64,000 nucleotides of DNA from Candidatus Parcubacteria bacterium (GTDB lineage Bacteria > Patescibacteriota > Saccharimonadia > UBA4664 > JBIOIQ01), in NCBI GenBank assembly GCA_963718875.1, contig OY970378.1:1075691-1139690 (forward strand), read 5' to 3'. Both the position numbers and the translations under genes were made by a program. Below, one piece after another: positions 1,890 to 62,754 of this stretch. The notes under the pieces were generated by a model, which saw only the letters and a list, made by a program, of their open reading frames with translations, was not told where the DNA came from and ran no database searches. The stretch's first letter is position 1. The number at the start of each line of letters is the position of its first letter.

Positions 1890-1918
1890 TAATCCCTATT
1901 TTCATTTTATTAGTCTAG

Positions 1919-3802
1919 CTAATCGACTTTATAAAACACCTTGCCGTGGGGCAACTTGATATTAGGTATCCAGAAAGGTTGCCCTCCCCATTTGTTCTCT
2001 CGTTTTCCGTTTAGCCTATACATAGTCAAAACTGGAAGATTTTGTATCGAATTACCTAATTGTCTGTCGTCCGGCGAGAGTAAGGTGCCAGTTCCTTGGC
2101 TGATATCTCGATTACGTCGTACTATAAGCTTTGCGAGATTCAATGAGCCCTTTTCGTTTTTCAAAGCGTCTAATGCAGCAATAAGTGAAGCAGTGTCCCA
2201 GTTATTTGGTGTATCAGATCTTAAGCTCGATAGTATTTTTTCCAGATCCGGCAAAGTTATGTCGTAGACAGGGTGCTGATCGTCGTAAGCACTCATTACG
2301 TCGTCGAGAGTACCTGAATTTGACTGGTCTGGATCGGGCGGAAAATAGTTTACTCCTCCAACCAAAATGTTAAGCAAACCCTGGTCGACAACGTTCTTTC
2401 TCGTCGGTTTGAACTTAGACGAAGTCATTATTTGAATTTCGTCAATGTTCGACTCCTGAACCTGCTTGAGTAGCACCTCGTTTGAGTTATTAATCTCTGC
2501 AAATACATTAAACAATGGCATAGGCATAAAAACCCGCATTAGCATAGGATCTCTGTCATATCCAAACATACGACTGTGCTGCCAAAACGTATCAGCTTGT
2601 GGCCTTTTCGACGACCGGCAATAGTACACAGTCTGAAGCCCTTTAAAAGTTACCCCTCTTCCGAGGCTGTTTCCACCAACTACTATATTCATTCCCTCGT
2701 CAAACGATACCCTGGGATCGCTTTCTGGGCCAGAATTCATGGTGAAGACATTTATTTCTGGTGCTGTTTTGATAAACTCTATCAACTCCTTGAAATGCCT
2801 AATATCTGGTTTAGACTTCTTCAAATCTGACCAGGCAGTTTCCAGCCTATCTTGGGTTGCTTTATCGTCAATAGTCCGTAGGACGTGTTGGAGATAATGC
2901 TTTGCTTTCTCTGCAATTTTCTCGTGATCTTCTATCCTAACGCTTGGGTGGATCAAGAAGTTGCAAACCTTAGAGTCTTTATTAACAAACTGGTGAGCTG
3001 CGGTGATTAGATAGGTATCAGTTGCAAGCTTTAGACCCTCGGCAATTTCGTCGGTTTTAAGGAGCACACTTAGCTCGTCGTCCTCTGTAAACCTGTTAGT
3101 GAAAGGTGCTGGCTTACTATAAAAAAACGAGCCACCAAGGTAACCTCTGCCCGGCGGGAAGTAATGAACAAATGCTGGTTTCCAATTTGACGATTTTGCT
3201 TGAAGTAATAAGGATTGGGGCGTAGCAGTTACTTGAAGATAAAAGCTGCTTGTTGATAGGTTTCTAATGTTTTCCAAGTGCCGGTTAATTGCACTTTGCT
3301 CTTCACGGTTTACTTCAGTATTTAAACTGGCTGCGTCAGCCTCGTCGTCTACTATGAAAATCGGCCTGCCTTTACTAAATCCCGTTGAGGCTAAAATATC
3401 TTTCCACTTTTTCAAAACAGTCGTATTTTTCTTTAAGATAATTAAAGCGGGCTTACGCATATTAAGAGCCTTGAACCTCAATTCGTCGCCCTCGTCGCAT
3501 ATATTAAAAGTATCTAAATTTAGTAAAGCACGCTCATAAGTCTGCTTTTGGAGGGCATTGATCGGGCTGGTTAATACGAAAAATATTTCGAAGCCAGCGT
3601 CTGCTGCTGCGGCCACTACTCCGAACATTTGACCTGTCTTACCGCTTTGGACTTCTCCGAGTAGTAGCCCGGTTATGTGCTCCTTAAAGTTAAACGCCTC
3701 TATATGTTCCGGCACAATCTCTTGGAGGGTTTCTTTAACAGATCCGACGGCATTAGGCGAGGACTCGGCGAGCCTAGCTAGATAGTTCTGTAAATGGCTC
3801 AC
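1919..3802 (-). CDS. DEAD-like P-loop ATPase with Z1 domain (H.CglI / N.NgoAVII-like R-M accessory ATPase)
   Basis: Walker A GEVQSGKTGQM and Walker B/DEAD IFIVDDEADAAS. The size and downstream region fit a Z1-domain protein. In an operon with a PLD nuclease and a C5-MTase. Confidence 0.55.
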   Translation of the reverse strand: MSHLQNYLARLAESSPNAVGSVKETLQEIVPEHIEAFNFKEHITGLLLGEVQSGKTGQMFGVVAAAADAGFEIFFVLTSPINALQKQTYERALLNLDTFNICDEGDELRFKALNMRKPALIILKKNTTVLKKWKDILASTGFSKGRPIFIVDDEADAASLNTEVNREEQSAINRHLENIRNLSTSSFYLQVTATPQSLLLQAKSSNWKPAFVHYFPPGRGYLGGSFFYSKPAPFTNRFTEDDELSVLLKTDEIAEGLKLATDTYLITAAHQFVNKDSKVCNFLIHPSVRIEDHEKIAEKAKHYLQHVLRTIDDKATQDRLETAWSDLKKSKPDIRHFKELIEFIKTAPEINVFTMNSGPESDPRVSFDEGMNIVVGGNSLGRGVTFKGLQTVYYCRSSKRPQADTFWQHSRMFGYDRDPMLMRVFMPMPLFNVFAEINNSNEVLLKQVQESNIDEIQIMTSSKFKPTRKNVVDQGLLNILVGGVNYFPPDPDQSNSGTLDDVMSAYDDQHPVYDITLPDLEKILSSLRSDTPNNWDTASLIAALDALKNEKGSLNLAKLIVRRNRDISQGTGTLLSPDDRQLGNSIQNLPVLTMYRLNGKRENKWGGQPFWIPNIKLPHGKVFYKVD

Positions 3803-4860
3803 GACGCCTCAACCCCAAAGTTCATAAACCATTTGTTGCTGCCCTCAATCCTCGATAATGAAATTGTGTTTCTTCCATATTTGCTTAAAACCTCGTCGGT
3901 TACGGGTGTCCCCGGTTCTAATGCACCGTTCACTTCTAATCTGCCCTTTATCCATTTTCCTAATATTTTAAGATCGCCGTCTGAACGCAGGTTTTTACTG
4001 TAGTCCCCACTTACCTTACAATCAAACTCCCAGCCGTCGTCAGTAACCACTTGAAATACTCCACCTTCACCACCTGAATCTGCTTTTGGATAATACGGCA
4101 GAGAGGTTATTTCTTTAGGTACAATCAATTCGACTTCGTACCAAGGGCGTGGCATAACAAAACCCTGTTGATTCCGGCGACCTTCTCCAAAGAAAGCATT
4201 CAAGTTGCTCTTTGGGGCGTCGTTGGCCTTCAAGGGTATTTCTATCTTATCTGACGACAATTGGTTTATGAGTGCCGATACCTCACTACTAGTTACTTTC
4301 GTAACTCCGTATTGGTCGTTCAAAAGAGGATTGGTAGACACCACTAGCGGGATATCTACTTCCCCTATCGGCTCGCAAGCTTTTTCTAGAAGTTCACCAA
4401 TGAATGTTTCTAGCCTGATAGCTTCGCTATGGTTCTCTATTAGGTAATCGGCCTCATAAAGTCTTTGCCCAAATACAATATTGGAAAGGTTTGAAGAACC
4501 GACAATAGACCCTATAATGCTACCCTTAGACTTAAAGCTGGCTAGCTTGCCGTGGAACGGAAATGTAACAGATACAAATACTCCACCCAGGTTGTTGAGG
4601 GTGAGGTAATCATTTAATGACTCCAAGGCCACTTTTTGAGAGTTGGTTAGTCCCTCGAAGAAGTGCATACCAATGCAAAGTGTCAATTTTGGGCCGTGGT
4701 TCTGTTCAATAATATTTCTTAGGTCTACCGCCGAGTCGGCAGAAATATACCCAGACGCAATAGACAGCTCGTCAGAGGATTTTATGAGTTTATGGAATAT
4801 TTCAGTATAAGAGTCGAGTTCGGTTTTGACAGGCGGGAAGTTTGAAAATAGTAGTGCCAT
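3799..4860 (-). CDS. PLD-family restriction endonuclease (NgoFVII/NgoAVII/CglI R-like) with C-terminal B3-like DNA-binding region
   Basis: HxK...GSxN phospholipase-D nuclease motif (FHGKLASFKSKGSIIGSIVGSSNLS). 4-nt overlap with the upstream MTase stop and downstream ATPase start. Confidence 0.55.
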   Translation of the reverse strand: MALLFSNFPPVKTELDSYTEIFHKLIKSSDELSIASGYISADSAVDLRNIIEQNHGPKLTLCIGMHFFEGLTNSQKVALESLNDYLTLNNLGGVFVSVTFPFHGKLASFKSKGSIIGSIVGSSNLSNIVFGQRLYEADYLIENHSEAIRLETFIGELLEKACEPIGEVDIPLVVSTNPLLNDQYGVTKVTSSEVSALINQLSSDKIEIPLKANDAPKSNLNAFFGEGRRNQQGFVMPRPWYEVELIVPKEITSLPYYPKADSGGEGGVFQVVTDDGWEFDCKVSGDYSKNLRSDGDLKILGKWIKGRLEVNGALEPGTPVTDEVLSKYGRNTISLSRIEGSNKWFMNFGVEAS

Positions 4861-4863
4861 TTG

Positions 4864-5958
4864 CTAGTCCGCCGATATTGCCAGTTGATTGAGTCCCACC
4901 CCGTTTAACGAAACGCTATATTCACTTACTTTAGCTGGTTCAGTTAACTTACTAGCTTCAAACACTGGCATTAGGTAGCCTGCGATAGTCTTTGCCGCTA
5001 CGGGGGGGACTGAATTGCCGATTTGCCTACGAACTTCCGTGATTGAGCCTTCGAAGATAAAGTCGTCAGGATAACCGAAAAGTCTAGCACGTTCCCTGTT
5101 AGTCAAAGGCCGTGGTTCTTCGTAATGATACCCCCAGGTGCCACCTCCGCCTCCTGCGATTATTGTGGTAGAGGGCTTGTTTTTGTCTAACCGACGATAT
5201 ACGTGGCTGATCATACCCTTAACATAGTAAGGACTATCTTTAGGCAAAGAGGAAAAATTGCCACCGGCGGGGATCAGTTTTAGCATTTCTCTGGTCTTGT
5301 CCTTGATATTCTGGTGCTCGTTGTTGTGGGGTACTTTTTCAACCCCCTCTAATGCCTCTCCAGCCGTTACGAAATTTCCGGCTGTGTGAGTGGGATCGGG
5401 TTTCTCGAAATTGAAATCAATGTCATTCCTGATACCAACTATCAATACACGTTCTCTCAATTGTGGTGCTCCATAGTGGGCGAAATTGTAGAGATCGGCT
5501 CGTATTTTGTATCCAAGTCGTGCGAAGTCCTCAATAATCTGTCGTATTGCCTTACCGTCATTCGCCGTTAGGAGGCCTTTAACGTTTTCAGCCACAAAAA
5601 CTTTTGGCTTCTTAGTTTCAACCGCACGTACAAAATGCTTGTACAGGTTTCCTCGGTCTGTTTCTAAACCGCCCCGTTTCCAAATCATTGAAAAATCCTG
5701 ACAGGGGAAACCACCGGTGATAATATCTGCGTCCGGTACTTTATTGAAATCGATATCCGTAATGCTAGCGTGGGTGATATGGGGGCCGAAATTACGTTCG
5801 TAGGTCTTGCAGGACGAGGCTTCAAAATCGTTAGCCCATACAACTTCAAAACCCGCTAGCTTGAAGCCAAGATCGAGCCCACCACAACCGGAAAATAGAG
5901 ATAAAAGCTTAGGACGTTTGGAAATTTTAGTATTCTTATTTATCATTTTCATACTCAT
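4864..5958 (-). CDS. DNA (cytosine-5)-methyltransferase
   Basis: Motif I LFSGCGGLDLGF, motif IV GGFPCQDFS and the ENV motif. Confidence 0.85.
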   Translation of the reverse strand: MSMKMINKNTKISKRPKLLSLFSGCGGLDLGFKLAGFEVVWANDFEASSCKTYERNFGPHITHASITDIDFNKVPDADIITGGFPCQDFSMIWKRGGLETDRGNLYKHFVRAVETKKPKVFVAENVKGLLTANDGKAIRQIIEDFARLGYKIRADLYNFAHYGAPQLRERVLIVGIRNDIDFNFEKPDPTHTAGNFVTAGEALEGVEKVPHNNEHQNIKDKTREMLKLIPAGGNFSSLPKDSPYYVKGMISHVYRRLDKNKPSTTIIAGGGGGTWGYHYEEPRPLTNRERARLFGYPDDFIFEGSITEVRRQIGNSVPPVAAKTIAGYLMPVFEASKLTEPAKVSEYSVSLNGVGLNQLAISAD

Positions 5959-6153
5959 ATACCCCTTTCGTATGATTATAGACTAAAGCGTTATAAATTG
6001 CCGCAACATTTTTCTCTGGAACGAAACTAATCTATTCGGCTTTTGTTCGGTATCTTTACTCTACGAGAATCGTCGAGAAAACACAACACTTAGTACTTAA
6101 TTTCTTAACACCTCAACGGGAGTGGAGGGTATGCTTTTTTATCGAAAAATACC

Positions 6154-6462
6154 CTACTTTCGGGCAAATTCTGGGTCGTGCCGTTCCAAGTACCAGCGAG
6201 CTGCGACTGCGTCCCCATTTCTTATAGCGTCTACAATTATCAGCCGTGCCTTTTCTTTAGTAGCACTCTCTGCACCAACGAATATATCGGTAAATTCACC
6301 CTCTCTACGGATATGGTCGTAATACGCCCCGTAGGACACGCCAGCGTAGCGACAGGCCGCCCGAACGCTCAAACCCCTATGTAGAGCCCCGACGATCTTA
6401 CTTACCGCCTCTGCGTCGATCACTGACGGTCTGCCGACATTTGTTTTGAGAGTTTGAGGCAT
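6154..6462 (-). CDS. HTH protein resembling phage terminase small subunit (gp3-like DNA-packaging protein)
   Basis: GRPSVID...ARWYLERHDPEF pattern. Start chosen at internal ATG 6462 with AAGGAG 8 nt upstream; the ORF-track start at 6567 is unsupported. Confidence 0.5.
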   Translation of the reverse strand: MPQTLKTNVGRPSVIDAEAVSKIVGALHRGLSVRAACRYAGVSYGAYYDHIRREGEFTDIFVGAESATKEKARLIIVDAIRNGDAVAARWYLERHDPEFARK

Positions 6463-6529
6463 ATAGTTCTCCTTATCGGTTCGCCTCCGAGTATCTCCAT
6501 TATACCCGTTCAGATATAATTGAAGCAGT

Positions 6530-7204
6530 ATGAAAATGACGACCGAAGAAAAGCACGAATATAACACTTGGCTGGTTTTATCCGCTTTGAGAGAAAAGCA
6601 ATTAACCGTAGGTAATACCTTTAGCTTCCCAACCGATTACGTTGACGACCTAAATCCCGAACTGACACACGGGATAATTCGTCTACTACACGAGCAGGGC
6701 TATCTGCTCCGGCTGGATTTCCCGTCTGAACTAAACATACCGATCAACGGCGATAGGATTATGGTGCCTAGGATAGACTGGCCCGATAATTTGGCACGCC
6801 GTATACAGGTGGAATTGATACCGAAAAAATTTAACCGTATTTATCAAACACTCACAAAAAAGTTTGCTATCAAATCGGCGGTAGAACCACGTTCTGGAAC
6901 CCCTATGCTTTCGTTCGCACAGGTCGACGGAATAGCCTCATTCAAAACAGGGTGGTACACATTTAAGCCTGGGACAAAGGCCCATACGATATTGGAGTTC
7001 TTGCAGTCCAATAAGGGCTGGCCACAAGGTACTAACGACATTATCGAGGGCTGTAATAAGAAAATAGCTACAGGTAACTATAAATTTCGTGCTGAAAAGG
7101 ACATACGGGATACCCTAAACAATATTAGAAAGAACTTAAAGGTGAACAAGGGTGAGTTTTTTCCAATTATCAAACAGGGCGACAAGTGGGTTTGGAAGGA
7201 GTAA
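6530..7204 (+). CDS. hypothetical protein (mobile-element cargo)
   Basis: 224-aa ORF divergent from the terminase-small-like gene. No recognisable motif. Confidence 0.4.
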   Translation: MKMTTEEKHEYNTWLVLSALREKQLTVGNTFSFPTDYVDDLNPELTHGIIRLLHEQGYLLRLDFPSELNIPINGDRIMVPRIDWPDNLARRIQVELIPKKFNRIYQTLTKKFAIKSAVEPRSGTPMLSFAQVDGIASFKTGWYTFKPGTKAHTILEFLQSNKGWPQGTNDIIEGCNKKIATGNYKFRAEKDIRDTLNNIRKNLKVNKGEFFPIIKQGDKWVWKE

Positions 7205-7317
7205 ACCCTACAACCTAAGCTAGCAAGGTTCGTTCACTTTTTTCACCTAGTAACTCAATTACTCCTGGTATCAGAAAATGACTAGTACAAGTCATTTTTT
7301 AATTTCGCAGGATTACT

Positions 7318-7560
7318 ATGAGCCAGGAAGAAAGCACAATCAAAACCGCCGATCTCGCCCTGGCTTCCGTTTTGGTTGAGAAAAATTATGAACTTCTTGA
7401 ACTCGAACGCAACTATGGCAATCGAGTTTCTTTTGTTTTTGAACGTACTCCTGAAATCGAGGGGGTCTTGGCGGACTATTGGGGAAACCGAATAACTGTA
7501 AACCCCCGTATCTACTTCGACGCAATCAAGCACCTTAAGACTCGGATTTATGGCGGCTGA
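7318..7560 (+). CDS. small DUF5659-like protein
   Basis: 80-aa ORF, ADLALASVLVEKNYELLELERN...FVFE pattern typical of a small phage/CPR domain family. Confidence 0.35.
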   Translation: MSQEESTIKTADLALASVLVEKNYELLELERNYGNRVSFVFERTPEIEGVLADYWGNRITVNPRIYFDAIKHLKTRIYGG

Positions 7561-7795
7561 TATGCAATTAACCGACTCTGACATTTTGGAGTTTAAAGAG
7601 CTTGCTAAGAAGCACCTCGGCGTAGATCTAACGTGGGAGGCCGCACAAGATCAAGCCATAAAGCTTGTCCGGCTAATGCAAATTGTTCACCGACCATTGA
7701 GCGTCGAGGATTATGAAGCTATTCGCCTAAAAGACGGCTTTAGCCGCAATAAAAATGAGAACGAATATGAGCCAAGCGGATCAAAAGAGATTTAA
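7550..7795 (+). CDS. hypothetical small acidic protein
   Basis: ORF overlapping its neighbours by a few codons, operon-like arrangement. Confidence 0.3.
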   Translation: MAADMQLTDSDILEFKELAKKHLGVDLTWEAAQDQAIKLVRLMQIVHRPLSVEDYEAIRLKDGFSRNKNENEYEPSGSKEI

Positions 7796-8276
7796 TAAGT
7801 ACTTCCGGCAAAAGGGCATTCTCTACCAGCCGGGCTACGCCATTATTTTTGGCAACCTAAATGCCGGTATCTTGCTAAGCCAGCTCCTATATTGGCACGG
7901 AAAGGGTAAAGACAGGGAGGGCTGGATTTACAAAACTGCCGAGGGTTGGAGGAAAGAAACTGGGCTTACCCGGTATGAGCTAGAAACTGCAAGACGTACT
8001 CTAATTAAGCACAGCATTCTCGACTACAAGCGATCGGGAAACCCCTGCACAAGCCACTATCGACTTAACCTTCTAAAGCTAGAAGAGGCACTTCCTAGTT
8101 TGCTGGAAACCAACAATCTGGTTTATCTGAAACCACCCGACAGTATTTCGGCAAAACCGCAAACTCTTATTTCAGAGAGTACCCAAAAGACTACGACAAA
8201 AAGTACTCCGCCGATTAATAAATCCAATTATAAAAAACAACGGACTGCATTACTTGATATGAAAGGTTTTCCCTAG
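7767..8276 (+). CDS. phage-type replication initiator / DnaD-like winged-HTH protein
   Basis: GWRKETGLTRYELETARRTLIKHSIL resembles replisome-organiser N-terminal wHTH. Start at second ATG. Confidence 0.35.
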   Translation: MSQADQKRFNKYFRQKGILYQPGYAIIFGNLNAGILLSQLLYWHGKGKDREGWIYKTAEGWRKETGLTRYELETARRTLIKHSILDYKRSGNPCTSHYRLNLLKLEEALPSLLETNNLVYLKPPDSISAKPQTLISESTQKTTTKSTPPINKSNYKKQRTALLDMKGFP

Positions 8277-8334
8277 CTAGAGATCACTATTCAAAGCACT
8301 AACAATATTGTGTAATATATAAGGAGTAATGACT

Positions 8335-9954
8335 ATGCAAAGCCAAAATCTAAAATATTTCCTCTACGCTCGTAAGTCCTCCGAGGACGAGGACAGACAA
8401 ATTCAGTCAATCGACGACCAAGTTAATTGGTTAATACAAAAAGCCAATCAAACAGGAGTTGTTCTAAAGAAAAATCAGATCTTTACAGAGGCTAAATCGG
8501 CTAAGAAGCCGAATAATCGGCCCGTGTTCGCCGAAATGCTAGCCCGGATCGAAAAGGGCGAAGCAAATGCCCTACTAGTTTGGGACATTTCTCGCTTATC
8601 GAGAAACCCGATCGATAGTGCGGCGATACAATGGCTGCTCCAAGAAGGTAAGCTACGGTTAATCCATACGCACACACGAGAGTACCGCCCAGAGGATAAT
8701 ACGCTTCTATATAGCGTCGAGAGCGGTATGGCCAATCAGTACATTATCGAGTTACGTGCGAATACACAGCGAGGGATCAATAGTAAGCTTGAAAAGGGCT
8801 GGAAGCCTGGTTTAGCTCCCGTTGGCTACATAAACAACCCCGATCCCGACGAACGCAAGGGTGAAAAAACAATAATCCCCGATCCGGAGCGGTTCGATAT
8901 AGTGCGGAAAGCCTGGGATTTAATGCTTACCGGCAATTACAATCCCCGCCAAATACACCAAATAGCTACAGAGGAATGGCATTTAACTACCAAGGAGCGA
9001 AAAACGAAGCGTGGCAAGGTAGCGATTAGCCGCACGATCTCTCACAACGGCACATACCGTCTACTAACTAATATATTCTACGCAAAGGTAATTGATTATG
9101 GTGGCAAAATATATGAGGGGAGCCATAAGCCAATGATCACAATGGCGGAGTTTGACCGGGTACAAATGTTACTCGGAGCTAAGGGTCGCCCTCGCCCCCA
9201 GTCCCGTGAGCATTCTTATACGGGCAGCATTACCTGCGGCGAATGCTCGGCTCAAGTAACGGCCGAAACCAAGACCAAGTTCGTGAAAAAGACCGGTCAG
9301 CTCAAGGATTACGTCTATTACCGCTGTACCCACCGTAAGACCGGCGTGCCGTGCAAACAGCGGCCGATCCGCCTGGAAGACCTAGAGCCACAAATGGACG
9401 CACAACTACGGCAATTTACGATCCTACCGGTATTTCGGGACTGGGCATTAGAAAAGCTGAACCGGTCTAATGACCAAGAGATCGTAGATCGTACAAAAGT
9501 CCAAGAGTCGCTTACTAAGGCTCTGGACGACAATCAACAGCAGCTAGATAACCTGACTAAAATGCGTTACAGGGATATGATCGACGACGACGAGTTCAAA
9601 AAGGAAAAGAAGGCCCTCCAAACGGAGCTAGCTAGGCTTCAACAAGAGCGGGACGGCAATGAGGGGCGAGCTAGGAACTGGCTTAAGCTCACGGAGGATA
9701 CCTTCAAGTTCGCTTGCTACGCCCAACGATCGTTTATGTTTGGCGACGTTAGAACTAAGCGGGAAATCTTCGCCGCTCTCGGTAAGGGTGCGACGCTAAA
9801 AGACGGCGTGCTAACAATCACTCCTCATAAATGGTTTCAACCGATCGTCGAAAATTACGCCGAATTAGAAGCTGCGTATGAGGAGGTTAGAACTAAAAAA
9901 ACAGCCAATCTCAATCGAGAAATGGCTGTTTTGATAAATAATTGGGGCGAGTGA
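8335..9954 (+). CDS. large serine recombinase (integrase)
   Basis: N-terminal resolvase catalytic domain (YARKSSEDEDRQ, catalytic Ser), recombinase domain, Cys-rich zinc ribbon (CGEC...C) and C-terminal coiled coil. AAGGAG RBS. 3' end overlaps tRNA-His. Confidence 0.85.
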   Translation: MQSQNLKYFLYARKSSEDEDRQIQSIDDQVNWLIQKANQTGVVLKKNQIFTEAKSAKKPNNRPVFAEMLARIEKGEANALLVWDISRLSRNPIDSAAIQWLLQEGKLRLIHTHTREYRPEDNTLLYSVESGMANQYIIELRANTQRGINSKLEKGWKPGLAPVGYINNPDPDERKGEKTIIPDPERFDIVRKAWDLMLTGNYNPRQIHQIATEEWHLTTKERKTKRGKVAISRTISHNGTYRLLTNIFYAKVIDYGGKIYEGSHKPMITMAEFDRVQMLLGAKGRPRPQSREHSYTGSITCGECSAQVTAETKTKFVKKTGQLKDYVYYRCTHRKTGVPCKQRPIRLEDLEPQMDAQLRQFTILPVFRDWALEKLNRSNDQEIVDRTKVQESLTKALDDNQQQLDNLTKMRYRDMIDDDEFKKEKKALQTELARLQQERDGNEGRARNWLKLTEDTFKFACYAQRSFMFGDVRTKREIFAALGKGATLKDGVLTITPHKWFQPIVENYAELEAAYEEVRTKKTANLNREMAVLINNWGE

Positions 9955-10020
9955 TGGGGCTCGAACCCACGACATTCTGCTCCACAAGCAGACGCTCTAA
10001 CCAACTGAGCTACACCCGCC
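9943..10020 (-). tRNA. tRNA-His (GTG) with genomically encoded G-1 and CCA
   Basis: Manual fold: 7-bp acceptor stem with G-1:C73, D-arm TAGCTCAGTTGG, anticodon loop ttGTGga, T-arm GTGGGTTCGAGCCCCAT, CCA at 9943-9945. Confidence 0.9.
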
Positions 10021-10023
10021 TCG

Positions 10024-10287
10024 TTAACTAACGGCCTTCATAATACCGTCGCTTATTATTTTCTCAATATAATCCTTTCTCTTCCAGCGTTTAATTCTTC
10101 TTTCAGCATCTCTCGCTTCAGATAATGAGCCAAATTCTTGATGAAACACAAGCTTTAGCTCTCCCATTCGACTAGTACTTGGGGTACTTCCAGCAGAATG
10201 CTGGGAAATACGCCGATTAAGATTTGTGGTACTCCCGACGTAATACTTACCTGAACTTGAATATAAGATATAGAGATAGCTTTTCAT
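10024..10287 (-). CDS. GIY-YIG nuclease family protein (small stand-alone)
   Basis: YLYILYSSSGKYYVGSTTNLNRRISQH is the GIY-YIG motif. Confidence 0.75.
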   Translation of the reverse strand: MKSYLYILYSSSGKYYVGSTTNLNRRISQHSAGSTPSTSRMGELKLVFHQEFGSLSEARDAERRIKRWKRKDYIEKIISDGIMKAVS

Positions 10288-10784
10288 ATATTCCTAACCA
10301 AAGCCGACGCAAAGGTCGGCTCCCCGACAACTATAGCTCGTCGGGGCTGAGCTACAACCGCCATATAAGTTTCATTTGTATAAGTTTCGAATTACATTTG
10401 TACTTGACAGCATGAAAATTGAAAATTGATTAAATGATACTTGCATTCTGGTGGAGGCAATCCCGCAAGCGGGACGGCCCCCGAACTAATTTCAATTCGT
10501 TGTTTCAAATTCAAATCAGATCGGGTATATTTTAGAGCTCTTTCAAAATCCCTCCGTCCTGCAAACCCGTTTGTAGGGCAATCTACTGATTTTTTACTTC
10601 TCAAGGTAGCACTATGGCTATCTCTCAAACTAAGAAAATCACTATATTACTCCTAAAACGGGTTTTCGGATTTCGAATGGGTTTTGAAAGGGCTTTATTA
10701 CATTTTACCTGTAACCTATGACATTTGACACTTCTTCTAATGGCTAAAAGCCATGAGCAATCCGTCAGCTGACGGAGAGTCGAA

Positions 10785-11568: not shown

Positions 11569-11643
11569 TGGAGCGGGTGGCGGGGATCGAACCCGCGTCT
11601 CCAGCTTGGAAGGCTAGCATAATAGCCACTATACGACACCCGC
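11569..11643 (-). tRNA. tRNA-Gly (TCC)
   Basis: Acceptor GCGGGTG/CACCCGC, anticodon loop cTTCCaa, T-arm GCGGGTTCGATCCCCGC, CCA encoded. Confidence 0.9.
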
Positions 11644-11803
11644 ATGCTTACTGATTATCCGAAGTATTGTAGCAGAGAAAGGCTTTAGCGCAAAGGCTTA
11701 CTTAGGGCCAATAAGTCTCGGGTCATAATTAATTTGACTTCCCTGTGCACAAGTGCTATAATTGTGTGACGATTTTTGGCAGTTCTTGTTTCGGTCAACT
11801 CCT

Positions 11804-18532: not shown

Positions 18533-18567
18533 AGCTTTGTTTGTATCCTTGTCTCTTGTATCTTGTT
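18533..18567. repeat. right arm of inverted-repeat element (TTTGTTTGTATCCTTGTCTCTTGTATCTTGTT)
   Basis: CTTGTATC-type heptamer repeats. Homologous to 36500..36541. Confidence 0.5.
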
Positions 18568-18580
18568 ACTTGCGTCAGTT

Positions 18581-23339: not shown

Positions 23340-23912
23340 TAAGAGGGCTCCTTTTTTTAATCACCCTCCTAAGTTTTATACGAGCTCCATAGACTGGAGC
23401 TTTATTTCCATAATATACGAACAAAAAGCGAACAGTCAACACTTTTCTTAGGCTTTTTTACAGTTTAGTAATAAACTAGCTGTTTCTGTTGTGATTTTGC
23501 ACTATTTCTGTTACAAAAGTTCCACGCGCTTCTACGGAAGATGGCGTTTTTTGAAAGGAGTTAGATCAGTGTCAGCGTTCCCTTTAGAAAGGACGGTTAC
23601 CGTGGAACGCGGAATAGTAGTTTTTACGGGAGTAATCCCAGGAACAACCAGTTTGGCTTTATCCGGTCGGAAGCAGGTGATGAGGTCTACTTCAATACAT
23701 TTGGGCGATCGTTCGTCCTAGTGGTTGAAGACGGCATCGGAAGATTTTCCCGAGGCTGGTCAGGGTGGGTTACACTGGTGCCTCCAGTGCAGTTAAGTTT
23801 TGAGTAATACTCGTATGTTACACGGGAGGCACCCGTGTAATCGAATTGTCAGATCGGGACGCGAGGCCTTCGACAAACTCAGGCAGTAAATAGGAATCCA
23901 ATAATAAGCCGG

Positions 23913-36414: not shown

Positions 36415-36541
36415 CTCCAACCAACAAGATACAAGAAACAAGGCACAAACAGACTCCTACTTTCAAAATCCAAAGAGTTTGATTATTGAATATTGATACT
36501 TGGAGATTCTTTGTATCTTGTATCTTGTATCTTGTATCTTT
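36415..36541. repeat. 'empty' copy of the inverted-repeat element: left arm CAACAAGATACAAGAAACAAGG, ~65-nt spacer, right arm (CTTGTAT)x4
   Basis: Left arm 36425..36443 is the near reverse complement of 36511..36530, 17 of 19 positions. Homologous to the arms at 18101..18160 and 18533..18567. Confidence 0.5.
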
Positions 36542-38204: not shown

Positions 38205-38619
38205 GATGGGCGCTCCTTTGGAACAGGTTCCTTGACAGGCAGGAACGACCTCTTATTTCGGCCTAAACCGAAACGGCCTGGCCATAACGACACAGGACTT
38301 TTATTATACCAATAATGCTCATGTTTGTCAACTTTGCGCTCAGTTTGATGGCTTTGTCGGTATTTACTCCCTGAGCCTGTCGAAGGGCCGATTTTTGCGC
38401 TGTCTAGATTAATAGATCCCGGATCCGGAGCGCCACCGTAGACATCGTTCGCGGTGGCTTCCGGTGCGGGATGACAGTGTAGGAAGAAGTCGGGCTGTTT
38501 GCACTTTGCTACTTACTCTGCAGCCATTGCTTGATTCGTTATTCTCAAAAACCATATGCAGACTGGGCTAAATATGTCAAGACTATCGTCTGCACGCTCA
38601 AACGGGTATAATAGCAGCT

Positions 38620-40188: not shown

Positions 40189-40775
40189 TTTTTTTTGCGA
40201 ATTATGAATCAAGAATCATGAATTATGGCGCCAGTATGGGCAATTGTTTTTCGAAGTAGCGACCCGTACTGTCATCCTCGATCGGAAGGCCGAAATACAA
40301 TTGCCTTTACGTACAATCGTCCGCTCCGGATCGGGGATCCACCATCGATGTGCACAGTGAATTGACGGCTGTGCATTCTTCTAACAATGATCGAGCCATA
40401 CTTATTGTGGAGTCATTATTTATAACTGTATTTTATCCTAACCCAGATTATTAAAAAATGATTACGGGGGAATATAATTCATTTTAGCCCTTTTTAGAAT
40501 TATATAACTTGTTATATAATTCTTGCTACTTATGAAAATTGCAAGCTTGTAGTGCAGCATATTCATAAAAATATGAGTTATTTTTGCAAACTCTTTATAA
40601 AATACGCCAAACATTTTTGAAAATTATATAACTCCTAAAACCGCCAAAAGGCGATATGCCTACCTGTAGCTAAAATTTACATATCGGTCAGAAAAAATGA
40701 TTTTTTGCTTTTTCAGCCGGGAAAATTATTGAAAATGAATTGCTGACCGTGAATTATCAAATCTCCCATTAAACT

Positions 40776-40838
40776 GTCATTCCCTATAGGAAGCCAAACT
40801 CCACCATTGCCTAGTTTGGTACTCCTGATAGGGAATCC
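40776..40838 (+). other. conserved two-tier hairpin element, copy X
   Basis: Outer stem TCCCTATAGGA/TCCT(G)ATAGGGA, inner stem CCAAACT/AGTTTGG, 12-nt loop. Homologous to 58314..58372 on the opposite strand. Confidence 0.4.
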
Positions 40839-41053
40839 AGAATAAAAACATTCTAAATTTTTCATACTGGGTCCCCGATTAGAAGCGGTCGTTGACCTCT
40901 AAAGAGTGACTGAAAAGACCTTTCTGTCGAGGATGACATACGGGGTGTTAGTGGATGTTTAGGGATTCACGGACGAATAAGTTTGCAATTTTTCTATTAT
41001 TAGTGTAAAGTATGTTTACTTTTGTCCAACCCAAGACCACGAGGTGATAAGAA

Positions 41054-41575
41054 ATGGCAAACGTACCAACCGCACCTGTCACGATAACCGAAGAGCAGTT
41101 CATGGCCTTGCACACGCTCTGGCTGGCAATCCCCACCCACAGCCCTCTCGACTTCGCACGCATCCTCTGCGAAGTACTGGATTTGCCGTTTGAGGCAGTT
41201 AGAGACGGGATGGAGTTCAAGCTGCTCGGGGGTGTGTTCGACGAAGACGGCGAGGACGAATGTCTAATAGGTTGGCTTCATGGAATTATCCCCGGAGTCG
41301 TCCTTTACAGCGACCCATTGCTCGATAACAGCCTACTGGCAGGGTTGTTACAACGACAAACAGACGGGGTGTTGTATTCGGTGCGTCACTTCGACCCATG
41401 CGCCAGGGTGCGCATCTATGACACCCGTCATGTCTCGGCCGGTTTCCGGATTTGTCCAGCTGTCATGACGGGGGACTATGACCGACAGCAAGCGCTACCG
41501 ACGGTCGGCTTCGCGCCCCATCGCTGGAATCAAGAACTTCAGCCCTGGCTCGAGCGCTGGCTTCCCAAGACCTGA
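41054..41575 (+). CDS. hypothetical protein, high-GC island
   Basis: 173-aa ORF with ~58% GC, flanked by AT-rich DNA. Followed by a cttacgc...gcgtaag hairpin. Confidence 0.45.
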   Translation: MANVPTAPVTITEEQFMALHTLWLAIPTHSPLDFARILCEVLDLPFEAVRDGMEFKLLGGVFDEDGEDECLIGWLHGIIPGVVLYSDPLLDNSLLAGLLQRQTDGVLYSVRHFDPCARVRIYDTRHVSAGFRICPAVMTGDYDRQQALPTVGFAPHRWNQELQPWLERWLPKT

Positions 41576-43977: not shown

Positions 43978-44015
43978 AGGGAGCCTCCCTTGAAGTTGTT
44001 ATGTTTAATGATCAT
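43974..44015 (+). repeat. REP-like palindromic element copy 1 (AAGGGAGCCTCCCTT + GAAGTTGTTATG)
   Basis: Palindrome immediately after the GNAT stop. Same consensus as 45651, 50036 and 50694. Confidence 0.45.
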
Positions 44016-45654: not shown

Positions 45655-45690
45655 GAGGGAGCTTCCCTCGAATTTGTTATGGTTAATGAC
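45651..45690 (+). repeat. REP-like palindromic element copy 2 (GAGGGAGCTTCCCTC + GAATTTGTTATG)
   Basis: Directly after the stop of 44347..45654. Confidence 0.45.
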
Positions 45691-50023: not shown

Positions 50024-50029
50024 CGATAA

Positions 50030-50066
50030 GCACTTAAAGGGAGGCTCCCTCTAAGCACTTAAGCTT
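50030..50066 (+). repeat. REP-like palindromic element copy 3 (AAGGGAGGCTCCCTCT) immediately upstream of the Y1-transposase-like gene
   Basis: Same GGGAG..CTCCC palindrome. The tail differs: TAAGCACTTAA direct repeat on both sides. Confidence 0.35.
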
Positions 50067-50098: not shown

Positions 50099-50725
50099 AT
50101 GCCAAGGATCAATGCCGTAAAACCCTATATCGAAAACACCTACTACCATGTATACAACCGTGGAGTAGATAAGGAATTGATATATATTGATGATCAGGAT
50201 TACCATTACTTTATTCGCCTGTTAAATTTCTACTTGACTCCAGCTAAGTTTGAAGCGGAAACCTTATTTCGAAATCGATCGTGGAGATCAATAGAAAATG
50301 ATTTATCAATGGACGTAAAGCTTATATCCTATTGTTTGATGCCAAATCATTTTCATCTTCTACTCAAGCAACTACCCAATGATGGCCTAACTAAATTAAT
50401 GAAACGAGTTAGTGCGTCTTACGCCCTTTATTTCAATCTCAAGCATCAAAGAGTTGGACATTTGTTTGAGTCGAGCTGCAAAGCCAGGGCTATTTTCAAT
50501 GATGAGGATTTTATTGGGACCAACGCATACGTTCATCGAAACGCAAAAGATATTATGTACGACTACACTAAGTACCCTTACTCAAATCTGAAAGATATTA
50601 TTACGATGACAAAAAATTCTTGGACGAGTCCAACAGAGTTGCTTGAATTCTTTAACGGCGATCCCGTTAATTATCGTGATTACGTTTTAGTTGAGAGGGA
50701 GGCTCCCTTGAAATTGTTATGCTAA
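50099..50725 (+). CDS. HUH Y1 transposase-like protein (IS200-like; possibly REP-associated tyrosine transposase, RAYT)
   Basis: YHVYNRG near the N-terminus, HuH motif LMPNHFHLLL, conserved Tyr region NAYVHRN. Flanked by REP-like palindromes. Confidence 0.55.
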   Translation: MPRINAVKPYIENTYYHVYNRGVDKELIYIDDQDYHYFIRLLNFYLTPAKFEAETLFRNRSWRSIENDLSMDVKLISYCLMPNHFHLLLKQLPNDGLTKLMKRVSASYALYFNLKHQRVGHLFESSCKARAIFNDEDFIGTNAYVHRNAKDIMYDYTKYPYSNLKDIITMTKNSWTSPTELLEFFNGDPVNYRDYVLVEREAPLKLLC

Positions 50726-58121: not shown

Positions 58122-58160
58122 CCAAGAAAAAACCCGACACGAGGTCAGGTTTTTTCTTGG
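58122..58160. terminator. A/T-flanked 13-bp hairpin abutting the tRNA-Lys 3' end
   Basis: ccaagaaaaaacc...ggttttttcttgg. Confidence 0.4.
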
Positions 58161-58233
58161 AGGGCCCAGTGGGGCTCGAACCCACGACACAAGGCTTAAA
58201 AGGCCTCTGCTCTACCGACTGAGCTATGGGCCC
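58158..58233 (-). tRNA. tRNA-Lys (TTT)
   Basis: Acceptor GGGCCCA/TGGGCCC, anticodon loop cTTTTaa, T-arm GTGGGTTCGAGCCCCAC, CCA encoded. Confidence 0.9.
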
Positions 58234-58313
58234 TCGTCGCAACGACATTTCGGTTTACGTATCATATCCGAATACTTCAACCTCATGTCGTTGTTCCTAA
58301 AGACGGGGTGATC

Positions 58314-58372
58314 CCCTATCCGGAGCGCCAAACTAGGCAGTAGTTTGAGTTTGGCTTCCGATAGGGAATGAC
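58314..58372 (-). other. conserved two-tier hairpin element, copy Y (reverse orientation), ~75 nt upstream of tRNA-Lys
   Basis: The reverse complement aligns with 40776..40838. Outer stem TCCCTATCGGA/TCCG(G)ATAGGG. Confidence 0.4.
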
Positions 58373-58515
58373 GGTGATATGCTTTTTCACGAGGGGCAAG
58401 CGTTTTTAACAACCGAGCTACTATATCTTAAATCAGCCTCAAAATCAATTTGGCAGTTTGCACAAAGCTTTTACACAAGCAGTATGGCATCCTTAATTAA
58501 CTAATCGAGGGAAAT

Positions 58516-62540: not shown

Positions 62541-62754
62541 CCACTTTCGTAGCACTTAACCGGTCGGATCATCAAATCTGACTGGTCGGCGGGATCCAAG
62601 TATGGATCCCGCCACAACCCAAGGTTTTAATCGCAACGATTGAAGTTTTAGGTTGTCATGACAGCATCAAGACTATTGCCTGAGCCTGTCGAAGGCCTTA
62701 CTTTTATGCCCTTCGATTACACTCAGGGTCTTCGACAGGGAATAAAAGAAACGA

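Follow-up and report, generated by a model that had tools for sequence, protein, structure and literature searches.

A stretch of 64,000 nucleotides (hereafter the window) from Candidatus Parcubacteria bacterium, placed by GTDB in the Saccharimonadia of the Patescibacteriota (assembly GCA_963718875.1, contig OY970378.1, positions 1,075,691 to 1,139,690 of the forward strand), carries two similar hairpins, termed X and Y, in its intergenic DNA. X is located within the 865-nt gap that extends from the stop of a glgA-like gene (40188) to an open reading frame (ORF) of 173 aa at 41054, which precedes a glucan phosphorylase gene. Y is located in a divergent intergenic region, and the 5' end of tRNA-Lys (58158-58233) is 77 nt from its end. 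These distances agree with a sequence-only reading of the window, in which X had been placed in an ORF-free region of 850 bp and Y about 75 nt upstream of tRNA-Lys, and the pair had been proposed to represent a structured non-coding RNA (ncRNA) or a protein-binding cruciform. The present analysis indicates that X and Y are probably members of a dispersed family of palindromic DNA repeats of the REP (repetitive extragenic palindrome) type, belonging to the class with a CGTC or TGTC tag that includes dRS3/NTS, RPE-4/6 and the Ssn-related motifs (SRMs).

Hairpins, composites and their distribution in the window

The sequence and the folds of X and Y confirm two-tier hairpins in opposite orientation. 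X consists of a tag ACTGTC, a 13-bp lower stem ATTCCCTATAGGA/TCCT(G)ATAGGGAAT, an internal loop A / AC, an upper stem GCCAAACT/AGTTTGGT with a G-T wobble as its first pair, and a tail CCAG; in the folds of both X and Y the upper stem is of 7-8 bp and carries a loop of 12-13 nt. The cores differ at 9 of the 63 columns of their pairwise alignment, and the identity by this count is nearly 86%, somewhat above the 80% estimated earlier. Both have the inner stem CCAAACT/AGTTTGG and a loop that ends in TGCCT, as had been noticed, and the reported compensatory change is genuine, the pair A40788-T40826 of X being C-G in Y; among the six sequences used below for training, pair 16/66 is CG in four and AU in two. 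In the window the motif GGAAGCCAAACT-N(5-25)-CCTAGTTTGG is found at two places (0.00 expected), and folding of X and Y on either strand is far above that of shuffled sequences (z -4.0 to -5.2 as RNA, -4.2 to -5.7 as DNA).

Both copies are thus present as described, but the count of two falls short, since regular-expression and covariance-model searches detect at least five units in the window (X, Y, Z1, Z2 and X'; Table 1), and X and Y are each one half of an inverted-repeat composite. An 18-mer from the outer stem of Y, GATCCCCGATCCGGAGCG, occurs four times in the window (0.04 expected), and patterns for the two halves of a unit pick out Z1, Z2, X and Y, which have (A)CTGTCAT, CGGAAG, GCTCCGGAT and GGGATC in common. 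Z1 carries an upper stem CCACCG/CGGTGG in place of CCAAACT/AGTTTGG. All five units are found between genes and show no fixed orientation towards their neighbours; Z1 and Y occupy divergent regions, and Z2 and X are downstream of the glgA-like gene.

Each of X and Y forms the left unit of an inverted dimer with inverted repeats of the CCGTGAA type at its ends. X and X' face each other within imperfect inverted repeats CCGTGAATTATCAAA... / ...TTTAGGGATTCACGG (CCGTGAAT... / ...ATTCACGG), and GTCAT at 40776 can also pair with ATGAC at 40933; no target duplication accompanies X. The composite around Y is decayed and comprises, in order, a leader CCCCTCGTGAAAAAG (58383-58398; CTCGTGAA), Y itself, a degenerate partner with a 9-bp hairpin CAACGACAT/ATGTCGTTG, and a right end CGACGAGGG that abuts the 5' end of tRNA-Lys. 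Inverted dimers are thus represented by X/X', by Y in decayed form and by a pair in a related genome (L001, see below), the layout of which (3151-3303) is that of the X/X' composite; Z1 and Z2 are singletons. As Z1, Z2 and the units of another relative (L016) have no outer repeats of the CCGTGAA type, the hairpin is the conserved unit.

Table 1. Repeat units, composites and candidate enzyme genes, with positions in the window unless a related locus is named; scores of units are from the covariance model R1 described in the text.
Feature	Position	Strand	Remarks
X, long-form unit	40773-40840	+	core 40776-40837; folds; 84.7 bits, training member
Y, long-form unit	58307-58375	-	core 58310-58372; folds; tag ACCGTC, tail CAC; 82.8 bits, training member
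Z1, divergent region upstream of glgA-like gene	38412-38478	-	72.5 bits, training member
Z2, about 80 nt downstream of glgA-like stop codon	40268-40342	+	weak upper stem; 67.1 bits, training member
X', inverted partner of X	40867-40940	-	subfamily AGAAAGGTC...GACCGCTTCT; 37.1 bits, E 4e-7, untrained
Composite (dimer) with X and X'	40747-40972 (226 nt)		both ends matched; folds, DNA z -4.2
Decayed composite around Y	58234-58398	-	boundaries inferred from the fold and from alignment with X and L001
GIY-YIG nuclease ORF, 87 aa, single domain	10024-10287	-	PF01541, 58.5 bits; found by tblastn
Y1_Tnp (RAYT-like HUH tyrosine transposase) gene, 208 aa	50099-50725	+	PF01797, 31 bits (cut-off 23)
AGGGAGSCTCCCTTGAARTTGTTATG copies, window	43978-44003(+), 45656-45681(+), 50025-50050(-), 50696-50721(+)
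AGGGAGSCTCCCTTGAARTTGTTATG copies, relatives	L015 4522, 8945, 9603; L016 14240, 18763, 19422		positions conserved

Some other repeats were observed in the window. A short hairpin repeat, CCTGAGCCTGTCGAAGG, is present at 38365-38396 and 62674-62705 and, inverted, at 23864-23888, one copy adjoining Z1. The AT-rich DNA between Z2 and X (40450-40640) contains direct repeats of AATTATATAAC along with several promoter-like sites and is absent from the two closest relatives, L015 and L016. An exact match of 18 nt links the 3' arm of Z2 (40322-40339, -) to the coding sequence of a large serine recombinase (8875-8892, +). With some 0.1 pairs of this kind expected per window, the match is probably due to chance; the stretch encodes the peptide IPDPER of the recombinase, which reads like an ordinary portion of such enzymes, and an intragenic partial unit would be the less probable reading.

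Covariation, relatives and turnover

A covariance model (R1) was built from six training units, with 15 pairs in the lower stem and two pairs above the internal loop. It retrieved three untrained members, X' and two units of the relative L016, at 9696-9743 (29 bits; a short form without the upper stem) and 11595-11654 (19 bits). In an alignment of the nine members, which was fitted to the model and favours the structure, 94.8% of the cells are paired and 8 of the 15 pairs change on both sides (20 cells); none of 500 shuffles matched this covariation, and controls with slid partners were 33-47% paired. A MAFFT alignment of six sequences agrees with this, at 96.7% paired cells and 6 pairs with changes on both sides, and the hairpin is therefore maintained. 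The covariance-model search had been suggested in the sequence-only reading, which would have been given up for want of further homologues with covariation; the search has instead supplied additional members with compensatory changes. On the tag strand of the nine members G-U pairs exceed A-C mismatches, the seven wobble cells being consistent with folding of one strand.

To look for relatives, the inner-stem motif was scanned, as a strict pattern, over 185,579 species genomes, and a single relative was found in a metagenome-assembled genome (MAG) of Candidatus Saccharibacteria (L001), between a 162-aa unannotated ORF and a gene reading like that of ribosomal protein L10. The L001 composite has perfect terminal inverted repeats of at least 21 bp, folds at -82 kcal/mol (z -9.7) and is flanked by a 5-bp direct repeat, TTCGA. 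In addition, L001 has a canonical short unit, which reads TGTC-ATCCTGAA-CTTGT-TTCAGGAT-CCA.

Such a structure raises the alternative that the composites of 150-230 nt are miniature inverted-repeat transposable elements (MITEs), moved by a DDE transposase through the CCGTGAA... terminal inverted repeats, with the inner hairpins as cargo. The L001 termini together with TTCGA, which resembles a target-site duplication, agree with this, as do the same termini in X and the related leader of Y. MITEs such as the Correia elements of Neisseria share with these composites the size, the terminal inverted repeats and, in one copy, a possible 5-bp target duplication, but here the conserved unit is an inner tagged hairpin that also occurs alone without terminal repeats, and a parent insertion sequence (IS) was not found. 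Z1, Z2 and all the L016 units retain the tag, stem and tail in the absence of CCGTGAA ends, the hairpin being the unit that covaries; X has no target duplication; the single 5-bp match is one example with a chance of about 1 in 1000; and the roughly 180 kb of Saccharibacteria DNA that was inspected revealed no IS with such ends. A MITE origin is thus considered improbable.

Comparison with the closest relatives, at 80% identity, was possible through two syntenic loci, L015 and L016, to which a protein search starting from the glgA-like gene had led. In L016, related units stand both before and after glgA. Downstream of glgA, the window has three units in a spacer of 865 nt; in L016 this spacer measures 266 nt and contains a single unit, and in L015 it measures 92 nt and contains none. 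Upstream of the gene, the units enclosed by conserved blocks number one in the window and three in L016, and their orientation differs as well. No units were found in 11.7 kb of L015 or in 57.8 kb of three further relatives with glgA 66-72% identical. A metagenome scan with CGGAAGSC...GCTCCGGATNNGGRATC gave 13 loci, each a chance match that falls in coding DNA of high GC content and has no GTCAT tag, and of two viral scans one was empty and the other returned a chance 19-mer inside a phage gene. The unit counts and the scans together indicate a narrow and patchy family of variable copy number. The family is multi-copy and intergenic, occurs in both orientations, keeps its stems by compensatory change and differs in copy number between close relatives. 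Another Saccharibacteria MAG contig (L017, GCA_964580985.1) has about 4.8 kb after glgA (5785-10567) in which only tiny genes of 67-106 aa are called; the contig is without glucan phosphorylase, carB and Y1_Tnp genes.

The covariation and the gene neighbourhoods also bear on the reading of X and Y as a structured ncRNA or a cis-regulatory RNA, for instance a leader for glycogen-metabolism genes and tRNA-Lys. Strong folding, clear covariation and the excess of G-U pairs over A-C mismatches on the tag strand are what such an RNA would display; copies adjoin the glgA-like, glucan phosphorylase and GT4 genes, and a promoter-like site upstream of Y points to tRNA-Lys. However, the units stand in both orientations to the flanking genes and form inverted dimers, Z1 and Y occupy divergent regions, the L001 copy lies between unrelated genes, and relatives that have the genes lack the units in the corresponding intergenic DNA. 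The specificity of an RNA would reside in the upper stem, and this part is hypervariable or absent. An Rfam scan, likewise proposed earlier, returned tRNAs and noise only at gathering and permissive thresholds, with no family match; only tRNAs pass the thresholds, and the best sub-threshold match on Y is a microRNA model (24 bits against a threshold of 70). The ncRNA half of the original proposal is therefore left without support, a dedicated ncRNA gene is not the reading adopted here for X and Y, and an RNA of this kind is the least probable of the alternatives considered.

A further alternative is a passive role at the RNA level: once co-transcribed, the hairpins would stabilise the 3' ends of the flanking mRNAs, terminate their transcription or present targets to an RNase, and no DNA enzyme would be dedicated to them. 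Such roles have been proposed for REPs generally (PMC3733652). The L016 unit E3 and Z2 are similarly placed, about 80-85 nt after the glgA stop in sense orientation, which would suit this role. No T-tract follows the stems and the scans revealed no terminator-like site; an intrinsic terminator was rejected on the former ground. A passive role also leaves unexplained the conserved unpaired GTC tag, the C after the stem and the ATTCCC/GGGAAT foot shared with NTS, and as the whole explanation it is unlikely.

Unit anatomy and the CGTC-tagged REP and NTS class

The anatomy of the unit was counted over the nine aligned members. The unpaired tag, of the general form (A)Y(C/T)GTC, is TGTC or CGTC directly before the stem in eight of the nine (TATC in the other), the first stem pair (7/86) is AU in seven and the second (8/85) UA in all nine. 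The lower stem of about 13 bp has one bulge and is followed by a conserved asymmetric internal loop, with GGAAG or AGAAAG on the 5' side and YGCTCC or CGCTTC on the 3' side, above which the upper stem and loop vary freely or are missing. The stem closes with AT, except in two members with AC, and the palindrome is followed by a C in seven, the other two being without a paired closing T; the tails are CCA in five, CTA in three and CAC in one. In the six training units G4, T5, C6 and the ATC that follows the stem never vary. A K-turn was rejected because the internal loop has no GA on its 3' strand, and an integron attC site was rejected on account of wrong core sites, mixed orientation and the lack of a cassette array.

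Many of these features are those of the CGTC REPs. In the sections of Di Nocera et al. (2013, PMC3733652) devoted to this class, its members carry an unpaired tag CGTC (often TGTC, with a variant CCTC), a stem of 8-9 bp opened almost invariably by A-T and then T-A, a loop of 4-5 nt and a CCA-like 3-nt tail; they are mostly intergenic, predominantly form head-to-head (HH) dimers, are unevenly distributed and have no associated Y1 transposase gene, and they include dRS3 of Neisseria and RPE-4/RPE-6 of Rickettsia. The present units share with the REPs so described the tag, the opening A-T/T-A, the tail, the intergenic location, the inverted dimers, the uneven distribution among related species and the lack of a flanking Y1 transposase gene. 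They depart from them in size alone: X and Y have a lower stem of 13 bp and, beyond an internal loop, a second stem (62-75 nt in all), in place of the 8-9-bp stem. Only the short L001 units at 3430-3453 and 3244-3274 fit the stem and loop lengths given in those sections, and Saccharibacteria or Patescibacteria are not among the hosts named there. The copy number of the present family is known for these 64 kb of the genome.

The dRS3 element is part of the 28-nt NTS, with the consensus CGTCATTCCCGCGMAVGCGGGAATCYRG, which is bound and cut only as single-stranded DNA (ssDNA), and on one strand only, by SsnA, a single-domain GIY-YIG nuclease of 94 aa (Chenal et al. 2025, PMC11893778). Cleavage depends critically on the GTC that precedes the palindrome and binding on the C that follows it, and the identity of the loop is irrelevant, the loop being replaceable by extensions including an extra stem (PMC11893778). 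Motifs of this kind usually flank the ssn genes (single-domain GIY-YIG, cd10448), and natural transformation is modulated by the system (PMC11893778).

The tag, foot and tail of the present units are identical in sequence to those of NTS: the ends of X, TGTCATTCCC...GGGAATCCAG, fit the NTS consensus CGTCATTCCC...GGGAATCYRG, and the GTC and the C critical for SsnA are kept in eight and seven of the nine units, respectively. Further likenesses are the clustering of units around particular genes, a naturally competent host and the presence in the window of an ORF for a small single-domain GIY-YIG protein. The differences are an apical part of about 35-45 nt as compared with 0-5 nt in NTS, the failure of most units to match the strict SRM motif, and a GIY-YIG ORF that is not flanked by units. 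The strict motif, HGTCWYN(0-2)YYVSBRHN(0-5)WNVSBRGN(0-2)RNCYNB (PMC11893778), for which 0.23 chance matches are expected per window, is matched once, by the L001 unit at 3244-3274, a short unit inverted relative to its long partner; Z1 conforms to it if a loop of up to 70 nt is allowed, and Z2 and X' match its 3' half only. As X and Y keep the NTS foot, tag and tail around a structured insert of about 40 nt, on a stem longer than those of the described members, they are filed here as a long-form variant of the class.

Candidate enzymes and the proposed role

If X and Y belong to this class, the tag strand would fold as a hairpin whenever the DNA becomes single-stranded, in replication or in natural transformation, and the hairpin would be the recognition site of a hairpin-specific ssDNA enzyme. 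A need to stay recognisable as a hairpin is proposed to account for the covariation and the free upper stem, and the variable top would be tolerated because NTS recognition is indifferent to loop identity and extensions. Saccharibacteria are naturally competent (PMC10633639 / PMC10187176), and the entry of ssDNA, an event in which such sites could matter, would thus be routine for them. Hairpins that happen to be transcribed may incidentally act as RNA stem-loops; Z2, which follows glgA, may have side effects at the RNA level, as may Y, situated past the promoter-like site in the leader of tRNA-Lys. Between the two options of the sequence-only reading, the protein-binding cruciform is the closer one, as regards a DNA-level hairpin with the CGTC-REP/NTS signature; in Neisseria, NTS is bound and cut as ssDNA by a small nuclease (PMC11893778).

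By analogy with SsnA, a small GIY-YIG nuclease of the Ssn type would be the most likely partner, although the assignment is tentative. The 87-aa ORF of the window has Y6, Y16 and E62 where SsnA has Y6, Y17 and E64, and its product is 37% identical to a small GIY-YIG protein of Erythrobacter (P0252) and 39% to that protein's unnamed relative (P0251). The exact protein is absent from the protein collection. The ORF (10024-10360 region, -) is 4 nt upstream of tRNA-His, wedged behind a partial tRNA copy that consists of the tRNA 5' half with a hairpin CCCCGAC...GTCGGGG in place of the anticodon arm. Homologues of the ORF in other contigs (L020 2700-3270, L021 2130-2640, L022 4600-5105) show this layout, with the CCCGAC/GTCGGG hairpin, upstream of tRNA-Pro and tRNA-Asp. 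The adjoining DNA, about 1900-9950, contains restriction-modification genes (Z1 domain, NgoFVII-type endonuclease, cytosine methylase) and a large serine recombinase, ends at tRNA-His and is likely an integrated island.

The second candidate is the Y1_Tnp product, a Y1 HUH transposase, which as the partner is an unlikely alternative. Its homologues are 37-60% identical and include proteins of Patescibacteria (Saccharimonadales, WWE3, Woykebacteria) named only 'transposase'. A corresponding explanation would be that the units are REPIN-type elements moved by this RAYT-like transposase, which would read the tag and hairpin on ssDNA and copy the inverted dimers. The gene is apparently intact, lies about 8-9 kb from X and Y and scores above the Pfam cut-off; the motifs HFH (HUH) and YVHRN are readable in its translation; it scores higher on the REP-associated model than on the IS200 model; and its location between carB and ruvC is syntenic in the window, L015 and L016, as for domesticated RAYTs. 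REPIN/RAYT systems of GTAG REPs (Bertels and Rainey; PMC3116915, PMC5581495) share with the present case inverted dimers that form one long hairpin and a single-copy, vertically inherited Y1 gene in the genome. On the other hand, the tag here is (C/T)GTC and not the GT[AG]G of those REPs, the score on the NCBIfam model REP_Tyr_transpos is 31.5 bits against a cut-off of 80, and L015 has the gene but no units in the DNA searched. CGTC REPs are not associated with Y1 genes in the account of PMC3733652, and several TnpA-Y1 subclasses are without any REPs according to Quentin et al. (PMC6006769). The gene is, moreover, flanked by copies of AGGGAGSCTCCCTTGAARTTGTTATG and not by GTCAT hairpins. A REPIN-type origin is accordingly regarded as unlikely, though less so than the other alternatives.

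The AGGGAGSCTCCCTTGAARTTGTTATG repeat (AGGGAGSCTCCCT-type) is a 26-nt sequence, a short palindrome with a tail, found at or just past the 3' ends of genes; its 3' copy at Y1_Tnp falls inside the last codons of that gene. A relationship of these flanks to the hairpin units was rejected, as they are a different repeat. The copies may function as terminal repeats belonging to the transposase itself or as a terminator motif common to several genes, and the arrangement of a Y1 gene with an unrelated flanking repeat is the 'TIRtron' situation of Di Nocera et al. (PMC3733652). Elsewhere in the window, 50-nt inverted arms of TCTTGTA-type heptamer runs stand 12 nt apart at 36424-36535, just upstream of the stop end of a RuvA-like gene, and a related run is present at 18546-18572.

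Several observations weigh against the assignment of X and Y to the CGTC/NTS class and against the proposed partners. The sample is small, with a total of about a dozen units from three genomes, five of them in the 64 kb of the window, and the genome, metagenome and viral scans, made with strict patterns, yielded one relative only. The units measure 62-75 nt, as against the 8-9-bp stem of the CGTC REPs and the 20-50 nt of SRMs, and X, Y and the long L001 unit match only the 5' half of the SRM motif. Z2 and L016 E3 may be orthologous, given their same position and the alignment of their 5' halves, and this may point to slow vertical evolution over recent mobility. With respect to the enzymes, the best PDB relatives of the GIY-YIG ORF are UPF0213 proteins, no units occur within 5 kb of it or on the contigs of its homologues, and it looks like a tRNA-gene-associated selfish cassette; the Y1_Tnp gene is flanked, in inverted orientation, by the unrelated repeat in the window, L015 and L016 alike. 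Neither of the two candidates in the window is convincing, and no enzyme is linked to the repeats.

Membership of the CGTC/TGTC-tagged class nevertheless remains the probable reading of X and Y. A more specific and distinctly speculative extension is that the long-form hairpins are sites of a Saccharibacterial Ssn-type nuclease, possibly the 87-aa GIY-YIG ORF, and constitute a hitherto unseen 'extended-stem' SRM class that, by flanking genes such as glgA, would control which incoming ssDNA can recombine in an epibiont that is obligately competent and has a reduced genome. It is the Ssn link that deserves testing.

If the class assignment is true, the CGTC/NTS class of hairpin repeats would extend to the Patescibacteria, for which a literature search on REP, REPIN and RAYT found no report, SRM and NTS not having been included in that search. 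The class would also tolerate a large structured insert atop the hairpin with the foot, tag and tail kept, as predicted by the in vitro work on SsnA. For annotators, the units would better be masked than called as small ORFs or ncRNAs, and the elements would supply new enzyme/site pairs for ssDNA tools. Since Saccharibacteria depend on natural competence, a hairpin system marking ssDNA for a site-specific nuclease could shape recombination in these organisms.

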